A stretch of DNA of 10,623 nucleotides from contig CAZMMZ010000014.1 in assembly GCA_964567575.1 (NCBI GenBank), positions 1-10,623 on the forward strand. The letters are read 5' to 3'. Below, one piece after another: positions 1 through 10,623 of this stretch. The notes beneath the pieces are model-generated. The model was not told the origin of the DNA. It worked only from the letters and a program-made list of their open reading frames with translations, and did not search any database. Source of the DNA: Candidatus Undinarchaeota archaeon (GTDB lineage Archaea > Undinarchaeota > Undinarchaeia > Undinarchaeales > UBA543). The translations under genes and the position numbers were made by a program. The stretch's first letter is position 1, and every line of letters starts with the position of its first letter.

Positions 1-254
1 TCATAGCTTTTTTTGCGAGCATCTTCTTTATTTACAATTGATTTTATTAAATCGCGTTGCTCCAGTGTATCTAAGTGACTTGATATTGTTGATTTTGCTT
101 TTCCAATAAATGAAACAATTTCATCAAATTCTTTTGAAGCATCTGTAATAAAATGAATAATTCTCATTCGCGTTGGATCTCTTAATTCAATAATGTCTTT
201 AGAAGTTGCATATAATTCAAAATGGCTTTTTGGTTCTGCTGGTTCATGTTCCAT
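1..254 (-). CDS. ArsR-family winged-helix transcriptional regulator, N-terminal 84 aa only (runs off the left edge); resembles the N-terminus of MsvR-type ArsR-V4R proteins
   Basis: Not in the ORF track; translated by hand from ATG at 254: MEHEPAEPKSHFELYATSKDIIELRDPTRMRIIHFITDASKEFDEIVSFIGKAKSTISSHLDTLEQRDLIKSIVNKEDARKKSY, open to the edge. The pattern DPTR..I...I...FDEIV...GKAKSTISSHL..L....LI.....DARKK is typical of an ArsR HTH. The MsvR resemblance is recalled similarity; no V4R domain is visible in the window. Confidence 0.85.
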   Translation of the reverse strand, partial: MEHEPAEPKSHFELYATSKDIIELRDPTRMRIIHFITDASKEFDEIVSFIGKAKSTISSHLDTLEQRDLIKSIVNKEDARKKSY

Positions 255-276
255 GTTTTTGCGTTATCCTCTGTTG

Positions 277-284
277 TATTTAAG
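277..284 (-). promoter_or_regulatory. Candidate TATA box for the ArsR-type gene (leaderless geometry)
   Basis: CTTAAATA on the - strand with 22 nt between it and the ATG at 254, the same spacing seen for three other - strand genes here. Confidence 0.45.
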
Positions 285-315
285 CTTATTTATTCACTGT
301 TTAGTGGTAATATTT

Positions 316-333
316 GTTCGGTGATAGCCGAAC
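316..333. promoter_or_regulatory. Palindromic operator box 1 (GTTCGG-TGATAG-CCGAAC; core TTCG-N8-CGAA)
   Basis: Perfect 6-bp inverted repeat in the divergent intergenic region, with a near copy at 381-402. Confidence 0.7.
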
Positions 334-355
334 TATATTCTCTATTATACAAATG

Positions 356-363
356 TTTATAAG
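356..363. promoter_or_regulatory. Candidate TATA element (TTTATAAG on +, CTTATAAA on -), possibly bidirectional
   Basis: TATA-like on both strands and midway between the two palindromes. An alternative + strand TATA (ATTATAAT) lies at 374-381. Confidence 0.5.
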
Positions 364-380
364 CACTTTTGGCATTATAA

Positions 381-402
381 TTGTTCGGTGTTAATCGAAC
401 AA
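381..402. promoter_or_regulatory. Palindromic operator box 2 (TTGTTCG-GTGTTAAT-CGAACAA; core TTCG-N8-CGAA)
   Basis: Perfect 7-bp inverted repeat; its first 10 nt (TTGTTCGGTG) are identical to 314-323. It overlaps the expected nrdD transcription start region. Confidence 0.72.
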
Positions 403-425
403 ATATTAACTGTTCAGGAGTAAAA

Positions 426-2381
426 ATGGAAAAACCAACAACAGAAACCACAGATCTCGCATTATTTGTAAGAACTTCTAGTTTACAAATTGTTAAATGG
501 GATAAGCAGCGAATTGCTGAAGCTCTCATAAATGAAACAGATATTGACCCAAAAGTTGCGCAATTCATATGTGCAGAAGTTGAAAGTTTTGTTAAAAAAG
601 AACGCATAAAATTCATTACAGCACCACTTATTCGTGAACTTGTTAATGCAAAACTCATAGAATATGGGTATGAGAATATCAGAAAACAGCATACTCGTCT
701 TGGTTTTCCTATTTTTGATGTTGAGCAAATCATTACAGCACATAATAAAGAAAATGCAAATGTTCCTCATGGTCCAGAAGCAACAAATCTAACACTTGCT
801 GAAGGTGTGAAAAAAGAATATGCGCTTCTGAATGTTTTCAGTTCTGATGCTTCTGATGCTCATATGAATGGGGATATCCATATGCATGATCTTGGTTTTA
901 TTGACCGGCCATATTGTTCTGGAAACTCTCTTGAATATGTAAAGAAATACGGACTTTCTCTTCCAAATTCACTTTCAATTGCAAAACCAGCAAAACATCC
1001 TGAAGTTCTTATTGGTCAAGTTATCAAATTTAGTGCAGCATTGCAAGGAACTTTTGCAGGTGCTATTGGATGGGATGCTGTTAATCTTTTCCTAGCTCCA
1101 TATCTAAAAGGAAAAACCGACAAAGAATTAAAACAATATGCACAGATTCTTATTTTTGAATTTGCACAACAAGCAGTTGCTCGTGGTGGTCAAAGTATCT
1201 TTTCAGATTTGAATCTTTATTGGGAAGTTCCAAAACATTTTGCTGATGTTCCTGCAATCGGCCCTGGGGGAGAATTTACTGGATTAACTTATCAGGATTA
1301 TGGTGAGGATGCAAAACGTTTCATTAATGCTTTGTTTGATGTTTATATTGAGGGAGATGCTCGAGGAAGACCTTTCTTTTTCCCAAAACCAAATCTCCAC
1401 ATCACTGAGAAATTCTTTAAAACTGATGGTAATGAAGAGTTCCTAGAAAAAGCTGCGACTCTATCATCAGAAATGGGTAATACTTATTACTTATTAGATC
1501 GCGGAGACACTGCAAAGATTTCTGAATGTTGCAGATTGTCATTTAAATTAGAAGCTGATGATCTTGAAGATGCAAAAACTCCTTGGAAAATGCGATACAG
1601 TGCAATGCACATCGCAACAGTTAATCTTCCAAGACTTGCATATCAAGCAAAAGGTGATGATGATAAATTGTTTGAACTTTTAAGAGAACGTCTTCAATTA
1701 ATTTGTAAAGCACATTCACAAAAGAGAAAGTTTGTTAAGAAATTACTTGACATGGAACAAAAAGGACCTCTTGGCATGTTAACAATGAAAGAAGATGGTG
1801 AGAATTATTACCGATATCATAAGGCATCTTTCTTAATTGGAATGCTTGGTCTTAATGAACTTATACAATTCCACACTGGTCATCAACTTCATGATTCTGA
1901 TGATGCATTCAAATTTGGTTTGCGAGTTGTTGCAACTATGAAAAAAGAAATTGAAAAACTTATGGAAGAATATGATATGAAATTTGTTCTTGAACAAACT
2001 CCTGCTGAAAGCACTGCACATCGACTTGCGCGTCTTGACATGCAAATGTATCCTACTGAAACCAAGAGTGTTATTAAAGGTCATCCAGAATTAAATGAAA
2101 TTTATTACACAAACAGCACGCAGCTTAATATTTCTGTGCCAGTAAATCCTATCGAGCGCGTAAAGAAAGAAGGAATGTTCCATCCAATGATTGAAGCTGG
2201 GAGCATTTCTCACTTGTGGCTTGGCGAATCACGTCCTGATCCTAGTAGCATATCCAACTTTGTAAAGAAGGTTTTCAAAGAAACCTTGAACGATCAAATT
2301 GCGTTTAGTCCGGAATTCACGCATTGTTTGGGATGTGGAAAAACTACTAGAGGTATACCGGAAGATTTTGGAGGTATGTAA
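426..2381 (+). CDS. nrdD: Class III anaerobic ribonucleoside-triphosphate reductase, catalytic chain (651 aa), lacking the C-terminal glycyl-radical segment
   Basis: Start moved from TTG 381 to ATG 426 because AGGAG (416-420) precedes it. N-terminal ATP cone; HxHDL...RPYCSG (Cys codon 915); finger loop SECCRL (Cys-Cys at 1527-1532); VNLPRLA; EQTPAES; YYTNS; only one CxxC (CLGC, 2325-2336) before TAA. No RVxG motif. Confidence 0.95.
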   Translation: MEKPTTETTDLALFVRTSSLQIVKWDKQRIAEALINETDIDPKVAQFICAEVESFVKKERIKFITAPLIRELVNAKLIEYGYENIRKQHTRLGFPIFDVEQIITAHNKENANVPHGPEATNLTLAEGVKKEYALLNVFSSDASDAHMNGDIHMHDLGFIDRPYCSGNSLEYVKKYGLSLPNSLSIAKPAKHPEVLIGQVIKFSAALQGTFAGAIGWDAVNLFLAPYLKGKTDKELKQYAQILIFEFAQQAVARGGQSIFSDLNLYWEVPKHFADVPAIGPGGEFTGLTYQDYGEDAKRFINALFDVYIEGDARGRPFFFPKPNLHITEKFFKTDGNEEFLEKAATLSSEMGNTYYLLDRGDTAKISECCRLSFKLEADDLEDAKTPWKMRYSAMHIATVNLPRLAYQAKGDDDKLFELLRERLQLICKAHSQKRKFVKKLLDMEQKGPLGMLTMKEDGENYYRYHKASFLIGMLGLNELIQFHTGHQLHDSDDAFKFGLRVVATMKKEIEKLMEEYDMKFVLEQTPAESTAHRLARLDMQMYPTETKSVIKGHPELNEIYYTNSTQLNISVPVNPIERVKKEGMFHPMIEAGSISHLWLGESRPDPSSISNFVKKVFKETLNDQIAFSPEFTHCLGCGKTTRGIPEDFGGM

Positions 2382-2382
2382 A

Positions 2383-2583
2383 ATGACTGAAGAAGAAAAA
2401 GGAAAACCAGAAATGGGAACTTGCTTTAGTTGCGGTTCTGACAAAGTTGAAATAATGACAAGAGTTACTGGTTTTTTCTCTAAAGTAAATTCATGGAATA
2501 AGGGAAAAATTGGCGAACTCAAAAAAAGAAGAGATGCAATTAAAGGAAATAACCAAGCTCTAAAAATGAAAAATGAAACTTAA
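2383..2583 (+). CDS. nrdD: Stand-alone NrdD C-terminal module (66 aa): second Zn-binding CxxC plus glycyl-radical loop
   Basis: MTEEEKGKPEMGTCFSCGSDKVEIMTRVTGFFSKVNSWNKGKIGELKKRRDAIKGNNQALKMKNET. CFSC at 2422-2433; RVTGFF with the Gly codon at 2470; WNKGK..E...R tail typical of the NrdD C-terminus. GGAGGT (2370-2375) lies 7 nt before ATG 2383, so this start is preferred over the track's TTG at 2299. Confidence 0.88.
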   Translation: MTEEEKGKPEMGTCFSCGSDKVEIMTRVTGFFSKVNSWNKGKIGELKKRRDAIKGNNQALKMKNET

Positions 2584-2857
2584 AGTATTTACAAAAAAAG
2601 AGTGTCCAAATTGCCCAGCTGCGAAGAAATTGGTGAAAGAATTAGAGGAATCTGGAATTCCTGTTGAATATTATGATGTGGAAGATGTTGATGGTATGAC
2701 TGAAGGCAGCTTCCACATGGTAATGGCAACCCCAACAACCGTGCTTGTTAATGATTCTGGTGACGAAGTTGATTCTTGGCGTGGTGCAGTTCCTGATGCT
2801 GAAAAAATACGCGAATACTTTAGTGGTGGGGTAAAGGAACAAAAGGATGAAGTTTAA
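2573..2857 (+). CDS. nrdH: NrdH-like thioredoxin/glutaredoxin-fold protein (CPNC), probable electron donor to NrdD
   Basis: 94 aa; VFTKKECPNCP active site; ATPT cis-Pro motif; position between nrdD and nrdG. Confidence 0.85.
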   Translation: MKLKVFTKKECPNCPAAKKLVKELEESGIPVEYYDVEDVDGMTEGSFHMVMATPTTVLVNDSGDEVDSWRGAVPDAEKIREYFSGGVKEQKDEV

Positions 2858-3542
2858 AGGTTTTGCAGAAACAAGTTTTGTTGATTGGGATGGTAAAGTT
2901 AGTTCTGTTGTATTTACTCCTGGTTGTAATTTTCGATGCCCATTTTGTTTTAATAAAGATCTAGTGCTTAAACCAGAGACTCTTGAAGATGTTCCTGAAG
3001 AATTTATTTTTGATTTCTTAGAAAAGCAAAAAGATTTCATTGATGGTGTTAGTATCACGGGGGGGGAGCCAACAATGATGGTGGAGCTTCCTGGTTTTTG
3101 TGAGAAATTAAAAGAAAAAGGTTTTCTTGTAAAATTGGATACTAATGGTTCAAATTTTGAAATTTTAAAAGATTTAATTGAAAAGAAACTTATTGATTTT
3201 GTTGCAATGGATATTAAAGGTCCTTGGGATATTTATTCTAACTTTACTGGAGTTACAAAAGATGTGGAGTCCATTAAAAAAAGCGCCGAGTTTTTAATGA
3301 GTTCAGGAATTGATTATGAATTCCGAACAACTGTAATTCCTAGCTTACATTCTCTTGAAGTTTTTGAGAAAATGGTTACTCAAATTAAAGGCGCTAAGAA
3401 ATATTGCATACAAAAATTCCGACCTGGTATGTGTATTGATCCTTCATTTAATAGCGAAAAAGCTCAAACTGATGAAGAAATACAACCATATGTGGAAATA
3501 GCGAAAAAGTATGTTGACAAAGTAAAATTTAGAGGAAAATAA
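2847..3542 (+). CDS. nrdG: Anaerobic RNR activating enzyme (radical SAM)
   Basis: GCNFRCPFCFN (CxxxCxxC), SITGGEPT, KLDTNGS, DFVAMDIK, YEFRTTV; operon context. Confidence 0.93.
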   Translation: MKFKGFAETSFVDWDGKVSSVVFTPGCNFRCPFCFNKDLVLKPETLEDVPEEFIFDFLEKQKDFIDGVSITGGEPTMMVELPGFCEKLKEKGFLVKLDTNGSNFEILKDLIEKKLIDFVAMDIKGPWDIYSNFTGVTKDVESIKKSAEFLMSSGIDYEFRTTVIPSLHSLEVFEKMVTQIKGAKKYCIQKFRPGMCIDPSFNSEKAQTDEEIQPYVEIAKKYVDKVKFRGK

Positions 3543-4808
3543 TTACGCGCGGTTTCTTATTACCATAAATAGTCCTAAAGAACCTAATCCACCTATTATT
3601 GAACTTATTGTTGTGGCGATTGCTGCGCCTTCTATTCCATAAAGTGGTATCAACCTGAAATTTAAGAATAAATTAACAGTTGCTGCAGTGATAATTACAT
3701 ACATTGGTATTGATGGCCAACCAATTCCTTGGAAAGACCCAGAAAGAACAATATGTATGCTAATGAAGAAAGCTCCTATAATTAAAATTCTAAATGCAAA
3801 AGTTCCTGCCACATATGCTGGTCCAAATAATGTTCCAAGTATCCAGGGTGCTGCAAAGTAAAGAACAGTCATCAATGGAACTGCTGCAAGAATATAATAG
3901 AATAAAGATTGGTATGTGTGGTGTTTTATTTTCTCTTCATTATTTTGTGCGCGTTTCTCTGCTACAATTGGAAGTATTGTTGCCGAAATCGCAACTCCAA
4001 TCGCTATTGTTAATCTAGCTGTTGGAGATGCTGCTGCATAAATTCCAACTGCAGTTGTATCCATCAATTTTCCAATTAAGAAAATATCAGTAAATGCAAA
4101 AATAACTGTTGCTAAACCTGAGATTGAAGTTGGAATTGAGAATTTGAAAACTTCATAAAAAGTTTTGAATTTTGCTTTTGTATATTTAATATCTAATTTT
4201 CTAAATAATAAATATCCTACTAATACTCCAAAACCAAAAGCAAGCGTTGAACCTAGTATTGCTCCAATTACTTTATATCCTAACCAAACAAGAATCACTG
4301 CTAAAACTACTTTAAATAATTGGTGTGAAATTATTGTGTAGCTCATCCGATCCATTTTTTTGAATCCTTGGAAGAATCCTGTGAAAATAGATACAAAAAC
4401 TCCCAATGGAATTCCAATTGCAGTTATTTTTATTATCAATGCAAGTTCTGCTATATTAAAAAAGGAATAAGCAAGCCAATCAGATGCAAAGAATACAATT
4501 ACTCCTAACGCAGTTGCTCCAATCATGTAATAAAGCAGAGTTGATGAATACAGTTCTTCAAGTTTGTTTCTTTCACCACGACCAAGATGTCTTGCTGTAA
4601 AGCGTGCAATACTTGGTGCTATACCTATGGAGGTGAGCATAATTATTGTGAATTGAATTGGAAGCGCTAGATTAAGGATACCAAATTCTCCAATTGTCAG
4701 TGCGCGTCCCATAAGAACTCGATATAAATAATCTAAACCTCGCATTAACAAGTTACTTGCTAAAAGTATCAAACTCCCGCGCAAAAGAATATTCTTTGGT
4801 AATTTCAT
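3543..4808 (-). CDS. MOP-superfamily flippase (Wzx/AglR-like oligosaccharide or polysaccharide flippase)
   Basis: 421 aa polytopic membrane protein; YLYRVLMGRALTIGEFGI, GIAPSIARF, TDIFLIG...VGIYAAA, LIPLYGIEGAAIAT are characteristic of Wzx-type flippases. Confidence 0.85.
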   Translation of the reverse strand: MKLPKNILLRGSLILLASNLLMRGLDYLYRVLMGRALTIGEFGILNLALPIQFTIIMLTSIGIAPSIARFTARHLGRGERNKLEELYSSTLLYYMIGATALGVIVFFASDWLAYSFFNIAELALIIKITAIGIPLGVFVSIFTGFFQGFKKMDRMSYTIISHQLFKVVLAVILVWLGYKVIGAILGSTLAFGFGVLVGYLLFRKLDIKYTKAKFKTFYEVFKFSIPTSISGLATVIFAFTDIFLIGKLMDTTAVGIYAAASPTARLTIAIGVAISATILPIVAEKRAQNNEEKIKHHTYQSLFYYILAAVPLMTVLYFAAPWILGTLFGPAYVAGTFAFRILIIGAFFISIHIVLSGSFQGIGWPSIPMYVIITAATVNLFLNFRLIPLYGIEGAAIATTISSIIGGLGSLGLFMVIRNRA

Positions 4809-4830
4809 TAGAACTCAATTAAATTAAGGC

Positions 4831-4838
4831 TTTAAAAA
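4831..4838 (-). promoter_or_regulatory. Candidate TATA box for the flippase gene
   Basis: TTTTTAAA on the - strand, 22 nt before ATG 4808, in a 45-bp intergenic gap. Confidence 0.55.
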
Positions 4839-4853
4839 GTGTTTGAAACTTCC

Positions 4854-5657
4854 TTACTCCTCTGTTGGTTCCTGAACAACTCGTATTTTGTCGATTCTTT
4901 TCTCTAAATCTTTAACAAATGGTGCATTTTCTGTATGTTCAAGCTGATTACTACATTTCATACATCTAAATCCCATATCAGATGCTTCTTCAAAAACTAC
5001 TCGCGTGCATTTGCTTTTACACTGATAGAAATGGTTATTTTTTTCATATTCTAACATTTCCATTAATTCTTTGAGTTGTTTTTCTTTATCCTGATTTATT
5101 GCATTTGAAATTCTTTCTGGGTGTATTTTCCAATAATAAGTATACCAGCCTGTTTTTGATCTGTGTCTTCTGTAAGTTACAATCCCAGCTTCATACATTG
5201 CATACAAATGTTTACGGATGATGTTTGCTTTCAGTTCCATTTTCTCTGCAAGATCAACATCTGAGCGCTCTTTGCGAGAGATTTGATTCACAACTTGCAT
5301 TCCTTCTTCTCCAAGAAGGTTTTCTAAATATCCTGATAATTGTTTATCTTCTAAGAATGATACTTTTTTTCGAGAAACTCTTTTGGTTTTCTTTGCTGTG
5401 ACTTTCTTTCCTTTTGCTGTAATCTTTTTACCAGTTAATTTCTTTTTTACTACTTTGATTTTCTTTATAGCTTTTGGTTTAATCTTTGTAGATTTCTTTA
5501 CTACTCTTTTCTTAGAAATAGTCTTTTTTGTAACTGTTTTTTTTGTCTTCCTACCCAAGATTTTCTTGAGTAATGGTAATCGCTTTTTTGTAACTTTCTT
5601 AGAACTCTTTACGATTTTGGCGGTTTTTTTCTTGTTAGTTTTTACTTTACCCCTCAT
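4854..5657 (-). CDS. tfe: Archaeal transcription factor E (TFE alpha) with a ~100-aa lysine-rich N-terminal extension
   Basis: C-terminal ~165 aa: winged helix (DVDLAEKMELKANIIRKHLYAMYEAGIVTYRR..KTGWYTYYW) and Zn ribbon (FYQCKSKC...FRCMKC..L). ATG 5657 is preferred over GTG 5675 from TATA spacing; the start is uncertain by 6 codons. Confidence 0.92.
   Translation of the reverse strand: MRGKVKTNKKKTAKIVKSSKKVTKKRLPLLKKILGRKTKKTVTKKTISKKRVVKKSTKIKPKAIKKIKVVKKKLTGKKITAKGKKVTAKKTKRVSRKKVSFLEDKQLSGYLENLLGEEGMQVVNQISRKERSDVDLAEKMELKANIIRKHLYAMYEAGIVTYRRHRSKTGWYTYYWKIHPERISNAINQDKEKQLKELMEMLEYEKNNHFYQCKSKCTRVVFEEASDMGFRCMKCSNQLEHTENAPFVKDLEKRIDKIRVVQEPTEE
5392..5433. repeat. Imperfect 21-bp tandem duplication inside the TFE tail (KKITAKG / KKVTAKK)
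   Basis: tttgctgtgactttctttcct (5392-5412) versus tttgctgtaatctttttacca (5413-5433). Confidence 0.5.
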
Positions 5658-5680
5658 GACTTTACCCGTGTGCACCTTCT

Positions 5681-5688
5681 ATTATATA
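5681..5688 (-). promoter_or_regulatory. Candidate TATA box for tfe
   Basis: TATATAAT on the - strand, preceded by purine-rich GCAGTAAAG, 23 nt before ATG 5657. Confidence 0.55.
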
Positions 5689-5730
5689 CTTTACTGCTAT
5701 CGGTTTTAATGTCATTACTCAGTGGTAAAT

Positions 5731-6855
5731 TTATAAAATATATGGTCCAGCTAGATTAATTATTATCATTAAAAGAGAAATCGCACTCAAGCCTCTTACT
5801 AAAATTTTCGAAAGTGCTGGTGCTTTTCTTTTTGTTATTGCTTCAACCATCAACCCACCATCAAATGGTTTTAGTGGGAGTAAATTAAATAATCCAATTC
5901 CTAAATTCAAGATAACTATCCAATTGAATGCCCCTACTCCAAACCAAAATACGCTCTTTGGAACAAAAGAATGTGGTTTATAACAAAGTGGATTTACTAA
6001 AGTTTTTGAACAAATAACAGCTTGTATTCCTATGTATCCTCTGCCATTTTTTTCTCCTAATGTGATCGGGAAGGAACCTTGATCTGTATCTAGTGTTATT
6101 ACCTGTCCTGGTTTCAAATCCTTTGTAACCTCTGTAAACCCTTCAAGAGATTCTACTGGAGTTCCTGAAAAAGTAGTTAGCACTGCTCCGTCTTGTAAAC
6201 CAGCTATCTGCGCTGGTCCTCCGTCATCAACAGTTACAATATGTGCTCCTGGTATGAATGTTGTTAATGTTGGGACTAAAACAAAAATAAGTAAAAGGAA
6301 AGCAAGTATAGCGATTATGAAATTCATAAATGATCCTGCAACATACATCCGAAGTTGTGAAAGTGTTTTTGCGTTTTTTAGTTGTTTTTCATCAGGTTCA
6401 ACAAAAGCACCAATTGGTAAGAATCCAAGTGAAGCAAGACCAACTGATTTTAATTTTATTTTTTCTGTTTGAGCGATTATGCCATGTGACATTTCATGGA
6501 AAACAAGAACTGTAATTAATCCAATTATTCCAACCCAGAATGGGATTGTAACTCCTGGAATAACAGGAACTGCGCCTGCTACTGCTCCTTTGGTTGTAAA
6601 TATTAAGATAGTATTTTTTAAAAGCGCATAAAATATGTAAAACATTGCAATGAAACCAATTCCAATACCAAATGTTGAAAATCCTTTCCAAAAGCGTGGT
6701 GCTTTATTTGCAATTTTTTCTATTATTCTAATCCCCTGTTTTGTATGAAATAATGCTAAAGGTCCAGTGACTTTGAAATTTTTCTTTTTCCTAAGGACAA
6801 AAGTTCCGCTAATTACAAGCGCTAGTAATATTCCTATTACATAATATCCATTCAT
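5731..6855 (-). CDS. Site-2 protease (peptidase M50) with PDZ-like insert
   Basis: HEMSHG (HExxH), GAFVEPD, AGSFMN, NLLPLKPFDGG; PDZ-like segment (VTVDDGGPAQIAGLQDGAVL). ATG 6855 is preferred over TTG 6870 from TATA spacing. Confidence 0.92.
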   Translation of the reverse strand: MNGYYVIGILLALVISGTFVLRKKKNFKVTGPLALFHTKQGIRIIEKIANKAPRFWKGFSTFGIGIGFIAMFYIFYALLKNTILIFTTKGAVAGAVPVIPGVTIPFWVGIIGLITVLVFHEMSHGIIAQTEKIKLKSVGLASLGFLPIGAFVEPDEKQLKNAKTLSQLRMYVAGSFMNFIIAILAFLLLIFVLVPTLTTFIPGAHIVTVDDGGPAQIAGLQDGAVLTTFSGTPVESLEGFTEVTKDLKPGQVITLDTDQGSFPITLGEKNGRGYIGIQAVICSKTLVNPLCYKPHSFVPKSVFWFGVGAFNWIVILNLGIGLFNLLPLKPFDGGLMVEAITKRKAPALSKILVRGLSAISLLMIIINLAGPYIL

Positions 6856-6877
6856 ATCTCGTTTTAACAAATTGAAC

Positions 6878-6885
6878 TATATAAA
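6878..6885 (-). promoter_or_regulatory. Candidate TATA box for the M50 protease gene
   Basis: TTTATATA on the - strand, 22 nt before ATG 6855. Confidence 0.62.
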
Positions 6886-6891
6886 GTTGTC

Positions 6892-7809
6892 TTATAACAC
6901 GAAAGCAGCAATAATAAAGGCAATATAACCTGTTAAAAGAATCGCTCCTTGCCACATATGTATCTTTTTACGGTGCCATAAGAATACTAACATTAATGCA
7001 GTTACTCCAAGCATTATTGGCATATCAAATATAAACAGGCGTGGGATTGCTTTTATTGGACGAACAATTGCAGATAAACCAAGAACTGCTGAGATATTGA
7101 ACATATTGCTTCCAATAATATTTCCAATTGCAATTTCCTGCATTCCTTTCTTTGCAGCAACAATTGATGTGACAAGTTCTGGTAATGAAGTTCCTATTGC
7201 TACAATTGTCATTCCAATTACAATTTGTGAAATCCCTAAAAATTCAGCTATTGTTGTTGCTGACCTTACTAACAATGTACTACCAATAATTACTCCAACT
7301 AACCCGATAATACAAAATATTATACTTCTATGTATTGGTTCTTTTGTTATATTTTTTACATCTCTTTTATCTTTACTTAGAAGATGTTTTAGGTAGACTA
7401 TCAAACAAGCGAATAAAATTAATCCTTCAAATCGATTTATTCCACCCCACATCAAACCAAAACATAAAATCGAAACAAGAAACATTATCAAACCGTGTTT
7501 GAAATCTTCTCTTTTTATCTTTACTGTGAATAATAATCCGGTTACTCCTAAGACAAGTGCAATGTTTGCAATATTTGAACCCACAACGTTTCCTGCTGCA
7601 ATTTCACTGGCTTTTAGGAAAGAAGCAACAACTGAAACAGCCATTTCTGGCAAAGAAGTTCCAAAAGCAACGAGTGTGAAACCAATTACAAATTTGCTTA
7701 TTCCAAGTGTACTTGCTATTTTTGCTGAGCTTTCTACAAACCAATCAGCTCCTTTTAACAATAATGTAAATCCAACTAACAACAAAAGCACAGTTATCAT
7801 CATACTCAT
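6892..7809 (-). CDS. Calcium/sodium antiporter (CaCA family, YrbG-like)
   Basis: 305 aa with two alpha repeats (GTSLPEMAVS...GNVVGSN and GTSLPELVTS...GNIIGSN); ATGA overlap with the ATPase stop. Confidence 0.93.
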   Translation of the reverse strand: MSMMITVLLLLVGFTLLLKGADWFVESSAKIASTLGISKFVIGFTLVAFGTSLPEMAVSVVASFLKASEIAAGNVVGSNIANIALVLGVTGLLFTVKIKREDFKHGLIMFLVSILCFGLMWGGINRFEGLILFACLIVYLKHLLSKDKRDVKNITKEPIHRSIIFCIIGLVGVIIGSTLLVRSATTIAEFLGISQIVIGMTIVAIGTSLPELVTSIVAAKKGMQEIAIGNIIGSNMFNISAVLGLSAIVRPIKAIPRLFIFDMPIMLGVTALMLVFLWHRKKIHMWQGAILLTGYIAFIIAAFVL

Positions 7810-10493
7810 TTAGCAAACCTTCTTTCAATAATCTGCTTAATAATTATCACTATATAAACTATTGCGGATACTCCAAGGATCCAAGGCCAAATTGACAATG
7901 GTAGTGCTACTGTATGGAACAATGTCTGCAGTACTGGCAAATAAATTATAGCAATCATTAGTCCAAGTGATAGTAAAATAGCAAGCCATACCCACTTATT
8001 TGAGTTCCATTTTACATTGTAGCGTCCACGAACTATTTGCACACTAACCATTTCAAGTACAATCAGTGCAGCTAAAGCAACTGTTCTTGCTTGTGCTTCT
8101 GGCATTCCCGTGTACAACACCCACTTGAATAAGCCAAGAGTTGCAATACACATGAGTACAGATGCAAACAGGATGCTTTGTATCATTGATTTTGATATTG
8201 TATTCTCTTTTGACTTTCGTGGATTCCTGTTCATTATTCCAATAGCAGGCGGATCCAAAGCTAATGCTACTGCTGGCAAGCCATCCGTAAGCAAATTCAC
8301 CCACAATATTTGAACTGCAAGTAATGGGAGTGGCATTCCAATCAATGCTGCAATAAATATTATCAAAACTTCAGCTCCATTACTCATTAAAAGAAAATGC
8401 AAAAATTTCCGAATATTGTCATAAATTGAACGTCCTTCTTCAATTGCATGCACAATTGTTGCAAAATTATCATCCTCAAGAACCATGTCTGCTGCTCCTT
8501 TTGCAACATCTGTTCCTGTTATGCTCATTGACACTCCTATGTCCGAATTTTTCAATGCAGGTGCATCATTTACACCATCGCCGGTCATTGCAACTATGTG
8601 TCCTCTCCTTTGCAATGCTTTGAGTATTCTTACTTTGTGTTCTGGTGAAACTCTAGAGAAAATTGAAACTTTTTCTATTATTTTATTAAGTTTCTTTTCA
8701 CTCATCCGACTTAATTCTTCTCCATCAATTGCAAGATCCCCTTCTTTGAACAATCCAATTTCTTTTCCAATTGCCACAGCGGTTTCATGATGGTCTCCAG
8801 TCACCATTATCGTTCGTATGCCAGCAGTTTTGCATGTTTCAAGTGCTTCTTTTACTTCTTCACGCGGAGGATCTATCATCCCAACTAGTCCAACAAAAGT
8901 AAGTTTGTTCTCGATTTCATCTGCCTTGAACTTTGATTTTTTTGGCAGTTCTTTGTAAGCAAATGCAAGAACTCTAAGTGCTCGGCCAGCCATATCATTA
9001 ATATTTTTAAGTATCTCATCCTTTTTCTTTTTAGTCAGTCTTTTTTTCTTTCCCTCATCATAGTAAACGGAACATCTGCTCAAAATTATTTCAGGAGCAC
9101 CTTTTGAAAATGCAACAAGTTTATCCTTATGCTGATGTATTGTCGTCATTCTTTTTCTTATTGAATTGAATTCAAATTCATGCATTCTCAAATATTCTTT
9201 ATTAAGTTTTGACAAGTCAAATCCGCCTTTTACAGCAAGTGTAAGCAAGCAACCTTCAGTTGGGTCTCCATGCATTTCCCATTTTCCTTTAACTTCTTGC
9301 AAATATGAATCATTGCAAAGTGCACCGGTTTTCAAAAATAGTTTCAGATGCTCTTGTTCTTTCTTTGTTGTTTTTCCCAATAATTTTATTTTACCTGTTG
9401 GATTATATCCGGTTCCAGTAATCTCAACAGTTTTCCCATTCAAGTATGCTTCACGAACAGTCATCTGATTCTTTGTCAAGGTTCCTGTTTTGTCTGTGCA
9501 AATCACATTTGTTGAGCCTAGTGTTTCAACAGCTGGAAGCCGCTTTACAATCGCATTCCTGCGTGCCATTTTCTGCAAACCCATTGCCAGTGTTATTGTG
9601 ACAACTGCAGGCAGTCCTTCTGGAACAGCAGCAACTGCCAAGCTTACTGCTATCATAAATACTGGAATTAGTGCTCCTCCTCTTAGCATCTCAACACCAA
9701 AAACCAGTGTACAAACAATTAAAGTTGCAATTCCAAGGAATTTTCCAATTTCTCTCAACTTTTTCTGTAATGGTGTTTCTTTTTCAGGTGCTTTCTGAAT
9801 CATCTTTGCAATTGATCCGATTTGTGTTCTCATTCCAGTTTCAACAACAACTCCTATTGCGCGACCAGTTGCAATTGTTGTATTCATAAACACAATATTT
9901 GAAAGCTCAGCAATTGATGTAACATCTCTTGAAAGAATATGCGTATCTTTGTGCACAGGAACAGATTCTCCGGTTAGAGCTGATTCATCAACAGTAAGAT
10001 TTGCGCTTTCAATTAATCGAATGTCTGCAGGAATACGATCTCCTGCTGCAAGAACAACAATATCTCCTGGCACTAAACTTCTTGAAGAAATTCTTCCACG
10101 CAAATTATTTCTTATTATAGTTGCTTTTGGAGCTGACATTTTTTTCAAAGCTTCCATTGCTTTTTCAGCTCGGTATTCCTGCACAAAACCAAGAACTGAA
10201 TTGAGTAGAATGATTAGAACAATAACACTAGTGTCTATAATTCCTTCAGGATCTTTATTGTAAAAACCAACAGCTGCTGATACAATTGCTGCCACAATCA
10301 ATATTGCAACCAATGCACTTTTGAATTGTCTAAAAAAAATCTTAAGTTTTGTATCTTTTTTCCCTTCTTTTAATTCATTTAATCCATATTTTCTAAGCCT
10401 GTTTGTAGCTTCAAAATTAGATAGGCCATCTTTTGTTGTTTCAAATTTTTTTAAAACTTCTTCTATTGTTTTTGAACTGTACATATTCTTCAT
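7806..10493 (-). CDS. P-type II Ca2+-transporting ATPase (SERCA/PMR1-like)
   Basis: 895 aa; TGES, VPEGLP, DKTGTLT, KGAPE, TGD, GDGVNDAPAL, DDNF, and M6 WVNLLTDG. Confidence 0.93.
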   Translation of the reverse strand: MKNMYSSKTIEEVLKKFETTKDGLSNFEATNRLRKYGLNELKEGKKDTKLKIFFRQFKSALVAILIVAAIVSAAVGFYNKDPEGIIDTSVIVLIILLNSVLGFVQEYRAEKAMEALKKMSAPKATIIRNNLRGRISSRSLVPGDIVVLAAGDRIPADIRLIESANLTVDESALTGESVPVHKDTHILSRDVTSIAELSNIVFMNTTIATGRAIGVVVETGMRTQIGSIAKMIQKAPEKETPLQKKLREIGKFLGIATLIVCTLVFGVEMLRGGALIPVFMIAVSLAVAAVPEGLPAVVTITLAMGLQKMARRNAIVKRLPAVETLGSTNVICTDKTGTLTKNQMTVREAYLNGKTVEITGTGYNPTGKIKLLGKTTKKEQEHLKLFLKTGALCNDSYLQEVKGKWEMHGDPTEGCLLTLAVKGGFDLSKLNKEYLRMHEFEFNSIRKRMTTIHQHKDKLVAFSKGAPEIILSRCSVYYDEGKKKRLTKKKKDEILKNINDMAGRALRVLAFAYKELPKKSKFKADEIENKLTFVGLVGMIDPPREEVKEALETCKTAGIRTIMVTGDHHETAVAIGKEIGLFKEGDLAIDGEELSRMSEKKLNKIIEKVSIFSRVSPEHKVRILKALQRRGHIVAMTGDGVNDAPALKNSDIGVSMSITGTDVAKGAADMVLEDDNFATIVHAIEEGRSIYDNIRKFLHFLLMSNGAEVLIIFIAALIGMPLPLLAVQILWVNLLTDGLPAVALALDPPAIGIMNRNPRKSKENTISKSMIQSILFASVLMCIATLGLFKWVLYTGMPEAQARTVALAALIVLEMVSVQIVRGRYNVKWNSNKWVWLAILLSLGLMIAIIYLPVLQTLFHTVALPLSIWPWILGVSAIVYIVIIIKQIIERRFAK

Positions 10494-10591
10494 TTGCTAA
10501 ATTTTGTAATGACATATCTCAACATTATAGGTGCTATTATTACAGTTAGAATGATTGAAGATACAATTATTGTGTAAATATCTGCAGAAAT
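10490..10591 (-). pseudogene. Probable 3' remnant of a cation:proton antiporter (CPA2-like) gene
   Basis: Frame ISADIYTIIVSSIILTVIIAPIMLRYVITKFSK ends in a TGA overlapping the ATPase ATG (ATGA). It resembles the last helix of CPA2 antiporters (recalled). In-frame TAG codons lie upstream at 10592-10594 and 10619-10621, and there is no start codon. Confidence 0.4.
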
Positions 10592-10623
10592 CTAGTTTAA
10601 TGTTTTGAGAGTTACCCTCTACG

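Follow-up and report, generated by a model that had tools for sequence, protein, structure and literature searches.

A probable two-chain class III ribonucleotide reductase with a separately encoded glycyl-radical domain in a small-genome marine archaeon

Oxygen destroys glycyl-radical enzymes by cleaving the chain at the radical glycine. To our knowledge, every class III ribonucleotide reductase (RNR) of the NrdD type that has been solved or characterised carries this glycine on the catalytic chain, and the only known repair of such damage is the replacement of a part of pyruvate formate-lyase (PFL) by the spare part GrcA/YfiD. For PFL, GrcA/YfiD (E. coli) and Y06I (phage T4) act as autonomous glycyl-radical cofactors. 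According to a review published in June 2026, formate lyases are the only enzymes with known spare-part proteins, and the question is open for other glycyl-radical enzymes (PMC13450708; also PMC8683613). Split RNR subunits have been described elsewhere: NrdJa/NrdJb is a split class II RNR of Pseudomonas aeruginosa (PMC4520616), and the interruptions of phage nrdD genes that have appeared in print comprise introns, inteins, homing-endonuclease insertions and one unexplained fragmentation (PMC3653736). In the full-text literature that we searched, in which subscription journals are largely uncovered, a detached NrdD radical domain was not described; what turned up instead was split class II enzymes, intron- or intein-interrupted phage nrdD and the PFL spare parts.

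Here, we have analyzed a stretch of 10,623 nucleotides (the window) from a Candidatus Undinarchaeota archaeon (assembly GCA_964567575.1, contig CAZMMZ010000014.1, positions 1-10,623 of the forward strand). The source organism is a small-genome marine archaeon, whose nearest named relatives are Candidatus Undinarchaeales, and its own genome assembly comprises 745 kb (82% complete). A preliminary description of the window had proposed that nrdD is naturally split and that the radical carrier is supplied in trans. On the basis of the current results, the locus very probably encodes a conserved and genuine two-chain class III RNR.

The nrd operon and the two small-chain genes

The nrd operon consists of four tightly packed genes on the forward strand, in the order nrdD-large (426-2381), nrdD-small (2383-2583), a thioredoxin-like gene (2573-2857) and nrdG (2847-3542). 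The large and small nrdD genes are separated by a 1-nt gap, whereas 11-nt overlaps are found at both the small/thioredoxin-like and the thioredoxin-like/nrdG junctions. The large ORF extends from the ATG at 426 to the TAA stop at 2379-2381; a single spacer base (2382) follows, which completes the junction element at 2379-2382, and the small ORF starts at the ATG at 2383 in the +1 frame relative to the large ORF. These coordinates confirmed the layout claimed previously, that is, a 651-aa NrdD, one base and then a 66-aa ORF in the +1 frame with its own ribosome-binding site. The claimed GGAGGT site is indeed present before the small ORF, but this Shine-Dalgarno-like element lies at 2370-2375, one base off the place implied, within the final large-chain codons and 7 nt before the small-chain ATG. 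Upstream of nrdD, two operator-like palindromes of the TTGTTCG-N8-CGAAC type (314-335 and, 67 nt after it, 381-402) flank an A/T-rich, TATA-like stretch ahead of the nrdD start. Two matches to this palindrome type were observed against none expected; they are its sole copies in the 745-kb genome, and both congeners (L016 and L017) keep one copy, about 45 nt ahead of nrdD.

The 651-aa large chain, which contains the first half of the zinc ribbon besides the ATP-cone and the catalytic barrel, matches positions 1-517 of the 562 positions of the Pfam NRDD model (PF13597; E = 9e-128) and scores 389.6 bits on TIGR02487 (cut-off 326.35), which places it within the NrdD equivalog. It bears Cys164 and the finger-loop pair Cys368-Cys369, and the catalytic cysteines are invariant among relatives; the finger-loop CC motif aligns with that of T. 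maritima NrdD. The last conserved element is the first CxxC at 2325-2336, formed by Cys634 (2325-2327) and Cys637 (2334-2336), both of which are invariant across 57 relatives and align with the first of the two Cys pairs at the metal site in phage T4 NrdD (1H78). Only 14 residues remain beyond this motif, and the radical glycine is not on the polypeptide of the barrel: the RVxG[FY] loop is located on the 66-aa chain.

The small chain comprises an acidic leader, the second CxxC (Cys14 and Cys17, 2422-2433), the radical loop RVTGFF with Gly30 at 2470-2472, and WNKGK. It matches positions 520-560 of the NRDD model above the gathering score (E = 8e-10), so that on the model the second ORF takes over where the first leaves off, with neither overlap nor loss, and it aligns with residues 691-740 of P. 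copri NrdD (8P23). PF13597 is the only family that matches this chain, and homology to the PFL radical domain (PF01228 / IPR011140) was not detected. The putative four-Cys metal site is complete only across both chains (Cys634/Cys637 of the large and Cys14/Cys17 of the small chain), and all four residues are invariant and align with those of the solved NrdDs. Downstream, the 94-aa thioredoxin-fold protein with a CPNC site (Cys11 and Cys14; Thioredoxin_3, E = 2e-11) is the likely reductant for the RNR, and nrdG encodes a radical SAM protein with CxxxCxxC at residues 27-34, which scores 200.6 bits on TIGR02495 NrdG2 (cut-off 131.15) and is identified as a dedicated activase. Thus, all parts of the enzyme are present when the two chains are taken together. 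An identical 651-aa large-chain protein is already on record, and the guess that databases already hold short NrdD-like ORFs was right; these are labelled only as 'anaerobic ribonucleoside-triphosphate reductase'.

A second small-chain gene, which was out of view of the preliminary description, encodes 58 aa on another contig of the genome (G000 contig 8, about 49669-49845; L003 1495-1671). The unlinked chain shares 31 of 38 core residues with the adjacent one and retains half of the zinc site and an almost identical radical loop; each of the two stand-alone glycyl-radical-domain proteins has its own start and ribosome site. The gene adjoins a divergently transcribed, Cys-bearing HxlR-type regulator, with superoxide reductase and endonuclease III genes nearby. 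It is present in all three congeners, where the layout HxlR/small chain/Fe-S protein is conserved, and the Fe-S protein downstream matches only ferredoxin domains and the uncharacterised AF_0155 family. A conserved TATA-like element lies upstream of the unlinked copy; the palindrome of the nrd operon was not found before it. The dN/dS ratios were 0.13-0.15 for the unlinked copies and 0.07-0.14 for the adjacent small genes, the latter being rough values since dS was saturated.

Distribution and origin of the split

Examination of the 120 nearest large-chain clusters revealed 65 fused forms and 51 large chains that stop 1-14 residues past the first CxxC. Almost all of the split rows (49 of 51) fall into one clade that covers several archaeal phyla, and the trait needs only two changes on the tree; the tree was a FastTree run built without the columns of the split trait, and support for the split clade was 85, not 95. 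The break recurs at the same site in a large clade, and a ribosome site was seen before the small gene in the congeners as well as in other lineages; such recurrence was among the checks suggested in the preliminary description. In one relative on a complete contig, the large chain and its TAA are followed by a 16-nt spacer with GGAGGTG and then by a 49-aa small chain, and the linker residues (7 + 3) add up to the 10 of the fused forms. A small-chain search of 401 sampled archaeal genomes gave 19 best matches that were all located in small open frames, and at least 36 of the 401 genomes contain such a frame; this census of open-frame lengths was checked by eye at only 15 loci, and part of the small frames may represent fragments at contig ends. 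In two relatives, the small chain is fused to the thioredoxin-like protein. It is also found on viral contigs and, as proteins of about 100 aa, alongside a full-length NrdD in some genomes; G030 and G033 each encode an extra small protein besides the full-length enzyme.

The junction itself is flanked by TTTT and AAAA runs, as would suit a homopolymer in which sequencing or assembly had gone wrong by one base. However, the identical small-chain protein and the same junction occur on 23 contigs from at least eight independent assemblies, and the contigs of three other studies bridge 2360-2390 with zero differences and zero indels; in a fourth contig set (X10), a contig break at 2359-2376 leaves the junction unbridged. 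In three congeneric species the TAA stop is kept and is followed by A, AA or AAA ahead of the ATG, the 2- and 3-base spacers being those of G001 and G002, and the small gene lies in the +1, +2 and 0 frame, respectively. The GGAGGT site is kept in all three. Since the congeners keep the stop and GGAGGT with 2- and 3-base spacers, a one-base indel cannot account for the split. In addition, frame fusion would give 27 residues (14 + 13) between the CxxC pairs, in contrast with exactly 10 in the 65 nearest fused relatives, close to the earlier estimate of about 28 versus 10. The independent assemblies, together with the in-frame TAA that divides the two pieces in G002, refute the homopolymer error for practical purposes, and we regard its probability as negligible. 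Programmed recoding, by a frameshift at the stop or by stop read-through, could in principle read both ORFs as one chain, considering that a single base within an A-rich stretch lies between the stop and the ATG. Yet the mechanism would have to differ among the three congeners, with a shift of +1 in the first, of +2 or -1 in the second and read-through in the third. In other lineages the spacer measures about 12 to 16 nt (12, 13 and 16 nt) and in each case holds a ribosome site. Beyond the three congeners, five lineages have analogous GGAGG or GGGGT sites before the small gene, and a conserved ribosome site and ATG stand ahead of every small chain. In some relatives, moreover, the fusion partner of the small chain is the downstream thioredoxin gene. 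Recoding is thus very improbable. The claim of a natural split rather than a one-base error, with a radical carrier probably supplied in trans, is strongly supported by this sequence evidence.

It is also necessary to consider whether the split gene is functional and what its fixation means. The genome is small (745 kb at 82% completeness), and organisms of this archaeal group are often host-dependent, both of which would fit a decaying nrdD pseudogene in a reduced genome living on host deoxynucleotides. This reading is highly unlikely in view of the fact that both pieces are intact and under purifying selection, that all catalytic and metal-binding residues are retained, that nrdG and the reductant gene are intact and overlapping, and that the layout persists across phyla. 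A much more serious alternative, to which we give a somewhat less than even chance, is that the split is real and functional but neutral: the fission would have been fixed by drift and kept harmless by close gene coupling, with no saving after oxygen damage, and the unlinked copy would be a mere duplicate isoform. It should be noted that neutral fission opposes the adaptive part of the preliminary description and not the two-chain enzyme. In its favor, the simplest relatives have a stop, a ribosome site and a start inserted in the 10-residue linker with nothing else altered; fused and split forms coexist at 65-70% identity, each with the same operon; the break point moves by a few residues between subclades; and splits also occur at other positions and in other NrdD subclasses, as a permissive surface loop predicts. 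On the other hand, the split clade is old and seldom reverted, and passive fission does not predict the extra unlinked copies, the proteins of about 100 aa beside full-length NrdD or the copies on viral contigs. The position of the unlinked copy, beside the HxlR-type regulator and near superoxide reductase and endonuclease III, argues against neutrality as well.

Proposed working of the two-chain enzyme

We found no class I or II RNR in the archaeon's own genome (at 82% completeness, one could be missed), nor a full-length nrdD elsewhere in it, the latter being a check proposed before. The class III RNR is the organism's only detectable DNA-precursor enzyme; uptake of host deoxynucleotides by such an archaeon might weaken the argument that it must work. 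A second ATP-cone match lies on contig 4 of the genome. No PFL-type enzyme and no match to PF01228 or PF02901 was found anywhere in the genome.

In the two-chain enzyme that we propose, the large chain would provide two of the zinc ligands besides the barrel and the thiyl-radical finger loop, and the 66-aa chain would provide the remaining two ligands together with the glycine that NrdG turns into a radical. The small chain would initiate at its own ATG from the ribosome-binding site that lies within the final codons of nrdD-large, and thus both chains are probably made in about equal amounts. The small chain would then dock through strand pairing with the large-chain terminus, so that a Zn(Cys)4 site common to both chains is completed, and would insert the Gly loop into the barrel like the C-terminal domain of one-chain NrdDs. 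The thioredoxin-like protein would re-reduce the active-site cysteines. Modeling of the complex gave a score of 0.88 for the large and small chains compared with 0.01 for the best of three controls. Of 80 solved complexes, 58 attain this mark, and of 110 mismatched pairs, 2 do so. At least 85% of contacts were shared between the runs, the partner pLDDT was 76-77, and the predicted interface contained both CxxC pairs, with all four metal-site cysteines, and the Gly loop. The model supports docking, but it may recall the one-chain NrdD structures of T4, T. maritima and P. copri and would then reflect likeness rather than binding.

Because the large chain lacks its own radical domain, the adjacent small chain appears to be a regular and obligatory subunit, not a spare. 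The previous suggestion that oxygen damage would cost only a cheap, replaceable piece, as with GrcA, is therefore speculative for this chain. The feature that best fits the spare-part idea is the unlinked small-chain gene, which is new and belongs to an arrangement that we have not found described in print. This copy most likely acts as an alternative radical subunit under separate control, which docks on the same large chain. That it is a true spare, induced under oxidants by the HxlR-type regulator and replacing oxygen-cleaved small chains on an intact large chain, is a less probable extension, to which we would give about one chance in a handful. If true, a spare-part system would for the first time be known outside PFL among glycyl-radical enzymes, and it would be one built on an enzyme with a permanently detachable radical domain.

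An essential anaerobic RNR that naturally has its radical domain as a detachable 7.6-kDa protein, in a genus that also has a separately placed second copy, would offer a natural system for studying whether an activase can act on such a domain in its free state, by what route this domain moves into and out of the barrel, whether it is exchanged after oxygen damage and whether a two-chain zinc site serves as a latch. Annotation is affected too: the small gene is either labelled as a full reductase or not called, and large chains of 640-650 aa would look complete though unable to work alone.

Comparison with known systems

The locus belongs to the same HMM family as the one-chain NrdD enzymes with NrdG (phage T4, 1H78; Thermotoga maritima, 4COI/4U3E; Prevotella copri, 8P23) and has in common with them the finger-loop CC motif (T. 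maritima), the zinc-ribbon cysteines and the radical loop. An NrdG2-type activase is likewise encoded next door, and the reductant is of the thioredoxin type, as in the thioredoxin-dependent NrdD subclass. Unlike in these enzymes, the radical domain and half of the metal site reside on a separate 66-aa polypeptide, with the break inside the 10-residue linker between the CxxC pairs.

NrdJa/NrdJb and the split phage nrd genes resemble the locus in that one catalytic subunit comes from two consecutive ORFs that must assemble. However, they involve other classes and other break points, and the radical-bearing residue is never separated, so they are analogues and the present locus is not a member of their group. 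Similarly, none of the printed phage nrdD interruptions (PMC3653736) is a conserved stand-alone radical domain.

With GrcA/YfiD and Y06I, the small chain shares the form of a small, stand-alone glycyl-radical domain with a short, probably disordered leader; like GrcA/YfiD, it is presumably activated by the activase of its parent and inserted in the parent's barrel. It differs in being homologous to the radical domain of NrdD rather than that of PFL, and in carrying half of a zinc site. Coexistence of the GrcA type, with a parent that has its own radical domain, is seen in G030 and G033 and not here, where the parent chain is devoid of that domain and makes the adjacent small chain obligatory. 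The closest resemblance to GrcA/YfiD is shown by the unlinked 58-aa copy.

The nrdD gene pair and the nature of its split

Contig 14 of an 82%-complete genome of 745 kb contains the window, whose closest named proteins originate from Candidatus Undinarchaeales and whose DNA is present in seawater and hydrothermal-vent metagenomes. The large chain of NrdD (class III ribonucleotide reductase; 651 aa, 426-2381, plus strand) ends 14 residues past a CxxC (Cys634, Cys637), followed by TAA. One base past this stop, in the +1 frame relative to the large chain, starts the small chain (66 aa, 2383-2583, plus strand), 7 nt after a GGAGGT ribosome site (2370-2375, plus strand), and it carries the second CxxC (Cys14, Cys17), the RVTGFF radical loop with Gly30, and WNKGK. 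Positions 1-517 of the Pfam NRDD model were matched by the large chain and 520-560 by the small chain, and the large chain passed the NrdD equivalog cut-off on its own. The preliminary description had laid out both ORFs correctly, except that its ribosome site was offset by one base. Further along the plus strand, the gene for a thioredoxin-fold protein with a CPNC site (2573-2857) overlaps the small-chain gene by 11 nt and is itself overlapped, again by 11 nt, by that of an NrdG2-type activase (2847-3542). The minus strand from 3543 to 10493 looks ordinary, with non-nrd genes (polysaccharide/MatE-type flippase, TFIIE-alpha-like protein, M50 site-2 protease with PDZ, Na/Ca exchanger and P-type cation ATPase).

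Ahead of nrdD, two copies of the palindrome TTGTTCG-N8-CGAAC, 67 nt apart (314-335 and 381-402), flank a TATA-like stretch. The palindrome occurs nowhere else in the genome (745 kb), and both congeners keep one copy upstream of nrdD (L016 3557-3576; L017 85-104). The product of an ArsR/MarR-type HTH gene that is divergent from this region and runs off the window (3-254, minus strand) could be the matching regulator.

It is very probable that the two genes encode a natural two-chain class III enzyme, and the earlier preference for a natural split over a one-base error was borne out. Three species of the genus all keep the last-residue codons, the embedded GGAGGT and the TAA, yet have one, two or three A between TAA and ATG. 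Relative to the large gene, each therefore has its small gene in a different frame, one of them in frame behind the stop. Separate initiation accounts for all three, which neither one indel nor one recoding mechanism can do. Sequencing or assembly error is ruled out by this comparison together with the identical junction in independent assemblies: gene calls on 23 contigs, drawn from at least eight assemblies that differ in origin, give the exact 66-aa protein and one-base junction, and contigs from three further studies that span 2360-2390 show neither a difference nor an indel there. Programmed recoding is very unlikely, because the spacers of the three congeners need different mechanisms. 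Decay is opposed by the dN/dS of 0.07-0.14 among adjacent small genes, for which dS is saturated. A full-length nrdD, whose presence had been considered, was not found in the genome (82% complete), nor was any class I or II RNR catalytic subunit or PFL-type enzyme. Translation of the small chain and its cooperation with the reductant are independently supported by two relatives, in which it forms a single ORF of ~160-175 aa with the thioredoxin-like protein (L036 611-1138 in G203; L039 in G063); both domains were found by Pfam, and the large chain ahead stops past the first CxxC. A like fusion is suggested in six other census genomes by open frames of 135-201 aa.

Distribution and age of the split

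Recurrence of the break in archaeal relatives, with a ribosome site, was also seen. The best 120 clusters matching the large chain, at 65-100% identity, include 51 that end 1-14 residues past the first CxxC and 65 fused proteins (680-714 aa) whose CxxC pairs are separated by exactly 10 residues. On a tree whose columns were limited to the region up to the first CxxC, 49 split rows formed one clade (support 85) holding sequences labelled Hydrothermarchaeales, Methanobacteriota and Candidatus Pyrohabitans, and the trait requires two changes. Judged from these sequences, the split is old and widespread.

On a 1.9-Mb contig of GCA_002011125.2 (L027), a 643-aa large chain ends in TAA, and a 16-nt spacer that includes GGAGGTG leads to a 49-aa small chain (4450-4598). 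The linker residues of the two amount to 7 + 3 = 10, as in fused forms, so that the break is a clean fission within the zinc-ribbon linker; in the window's lineage both new ends were lengthened, to 14 + 13 residues. This small chain is absent from the record's called genes, so that the 643-aa large chain resembles a complete NrdD, and missing small-chain annotation is probably common. Short NrdD-like ORFs do exist in databases, as had been supposed, where they simply bear the full enzyme's name.

A small-chain profile was run over 401 archaeal genomes and 15 loci were inspected by eye. The 19 best matches all lay in small open frames, and at least 36 of the 401 genomes had such a frame. Another NrdD subclass is split at the same structural position, and yet another just past the metal site; in this second kind, the metal site (Cys, His, Cys, Cys) stays complete on the large chain, and only the radical loop comes from the separate ORF, which is 43-52 aa long and has a ribosome site of its own. 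Splits of the second kind were observed in G003 (L012 ~1380-1800), G027 (L007) and G081 (L047).

It should also be mentioned that NrdD-like ORFs in four genomes, G006 (L026), G009, G012 and G017 (G017:C57:37851-39251), match the model from ~4 to 500 only and have neither zinc ribbon nor radical loop. The one in G006 is directly upstream of a class II-like RNR ORF, and the profile search detected no small chain in these four genomes.

Catalytic residues and the predicted complex

The invariant Cys164 and finger-loop Cys368-Cys369 are present in the large chain. The latter pair aligns to the CC motif of T. maritima NrdD, whose subclass, shared with N. bacilliformis NrdD, is thioredoxin-dependent (PMC9669993), and this motif fits the CPNC protein encoded next door. 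Cys634 and Cys637 align to the first cysteine pair of the T4 NrdD metal site, and the small chain aligns to P. copri NrdD residues 691-740, which include the second Cys pair and the radical loop. When large-chain residues 100-651, the small chain and zinc were modeled together, the complex scored 0.88 versus 0.01 for the best of three controls; 58 of 80 solved complexes attained this mark, as did 2 of 110 mismatched pairs. The runs shared at least 85% of contacts (partner pLDDT 76-77), with small-chain residues 22-26 predicted to pair as a strand with large-chain 628-634 and an interface containing both CxxC pairs and the Gly loop. Since solved one-chain NrdD structures exist, the score may reflect memorised structures; the model shows that large and small chain can together form the known NrdD fold, rather than that they bind. 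In the mechanism we propose, both chains would be produced together, the small chain would latch via a Zn(Cys)4 site common to the two, Gly30 would be inserted beside the finger loop, NrdG would form the radical and the thioredoxin-like protein would recycle the active site.

The unlinked copy and possible spare radical parts

The preliminary description regarded the radical carrier as permanently supplied in trans, so that O2 damage would cost only a replaceable 66-aa piece. Supply in trans agrees with the separate 66-aa gene; the adjacent chain, however, is an obligatory subunit, and thus naming it spare is wrong, and the economy after O2 damage is hypothetical. A second small-chain gene (58 aa), preceded by a ribosome site of its own and a conserved TATA-like element, is found on contig 8 (L003 1495-1671; congeners L022 and L023). 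Its core is identical to the adjacent chain at 31 of 38 positions, including the CxxC and the entire radical loop, and its tail is different. Lineage-specific residues common to this copy and the genus's adjacent chains show that it arose by duplication within the lineage. All three congeners have it (dN/dS 0.13-0.15, dS unsaturated), each time divergent from the gene of an HxlR-family regulator whose N-terminus bears a cysteine and whose tail is Cys-rich. Downstream of the copy, each congener encodes a ferredoxin-domain member of AF_0155, an uncharacterised family; in the window's genome, endonuclease III and desulfoferrodoxin lie just beyond. Sensing of oxidants or electrophiles is common among HxlR-family regulators with such a cysteine, and weak matches of this regulator to RrpA and RrpB point in that direction. 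As the genome has no other glycyl-radical enzyme, the large NrdD is the only plausible partner of the 58-aa copy.

That this copy is a true spare radical part seems unlikely to us. Neutral fission in a permissive loop, with no cost benefit after oxygen damage, explains much of the data, but beyond its scope are the extra unlinked copy, the redox-flavoured neighbourhood of that copy, and radical-loop proteins of ~90-110 aa beside full-length NrdD (G030, G033, G157 and G383) and on viral contigs. These free-standing proteins (~87-112 aa; L020 941-1204 in G030, L021 792-1091 in G033, L045, L046 and viral contigs L052-L054) have an NrdD-type radical loop at the end and unrelated N-terminal parts; one has four cysteines of its own and the other ones have none.

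Other examples of split catalytic subunits come from class II (NrdJa/NrdJb, PMC4520616) and from class I genes of phages, and phage nrdD interrupted by introns, inteins or endonucleases has been described (PMC3653736). Spare radical domains are known for pyruvate formate-lyase only, and for no other glycyl-radical enzyme (PMC13450708, PMC8683613; 2026 and 2021); our full-text literature search, with subscription journals largely beyond its reach, turned up no description of a detached NrdD radical domain. The nearest parallel to GrcA is seen in G030 and G033, in which the free-standing protein is accompanied by a full-length NrdD with a near-identical loop.
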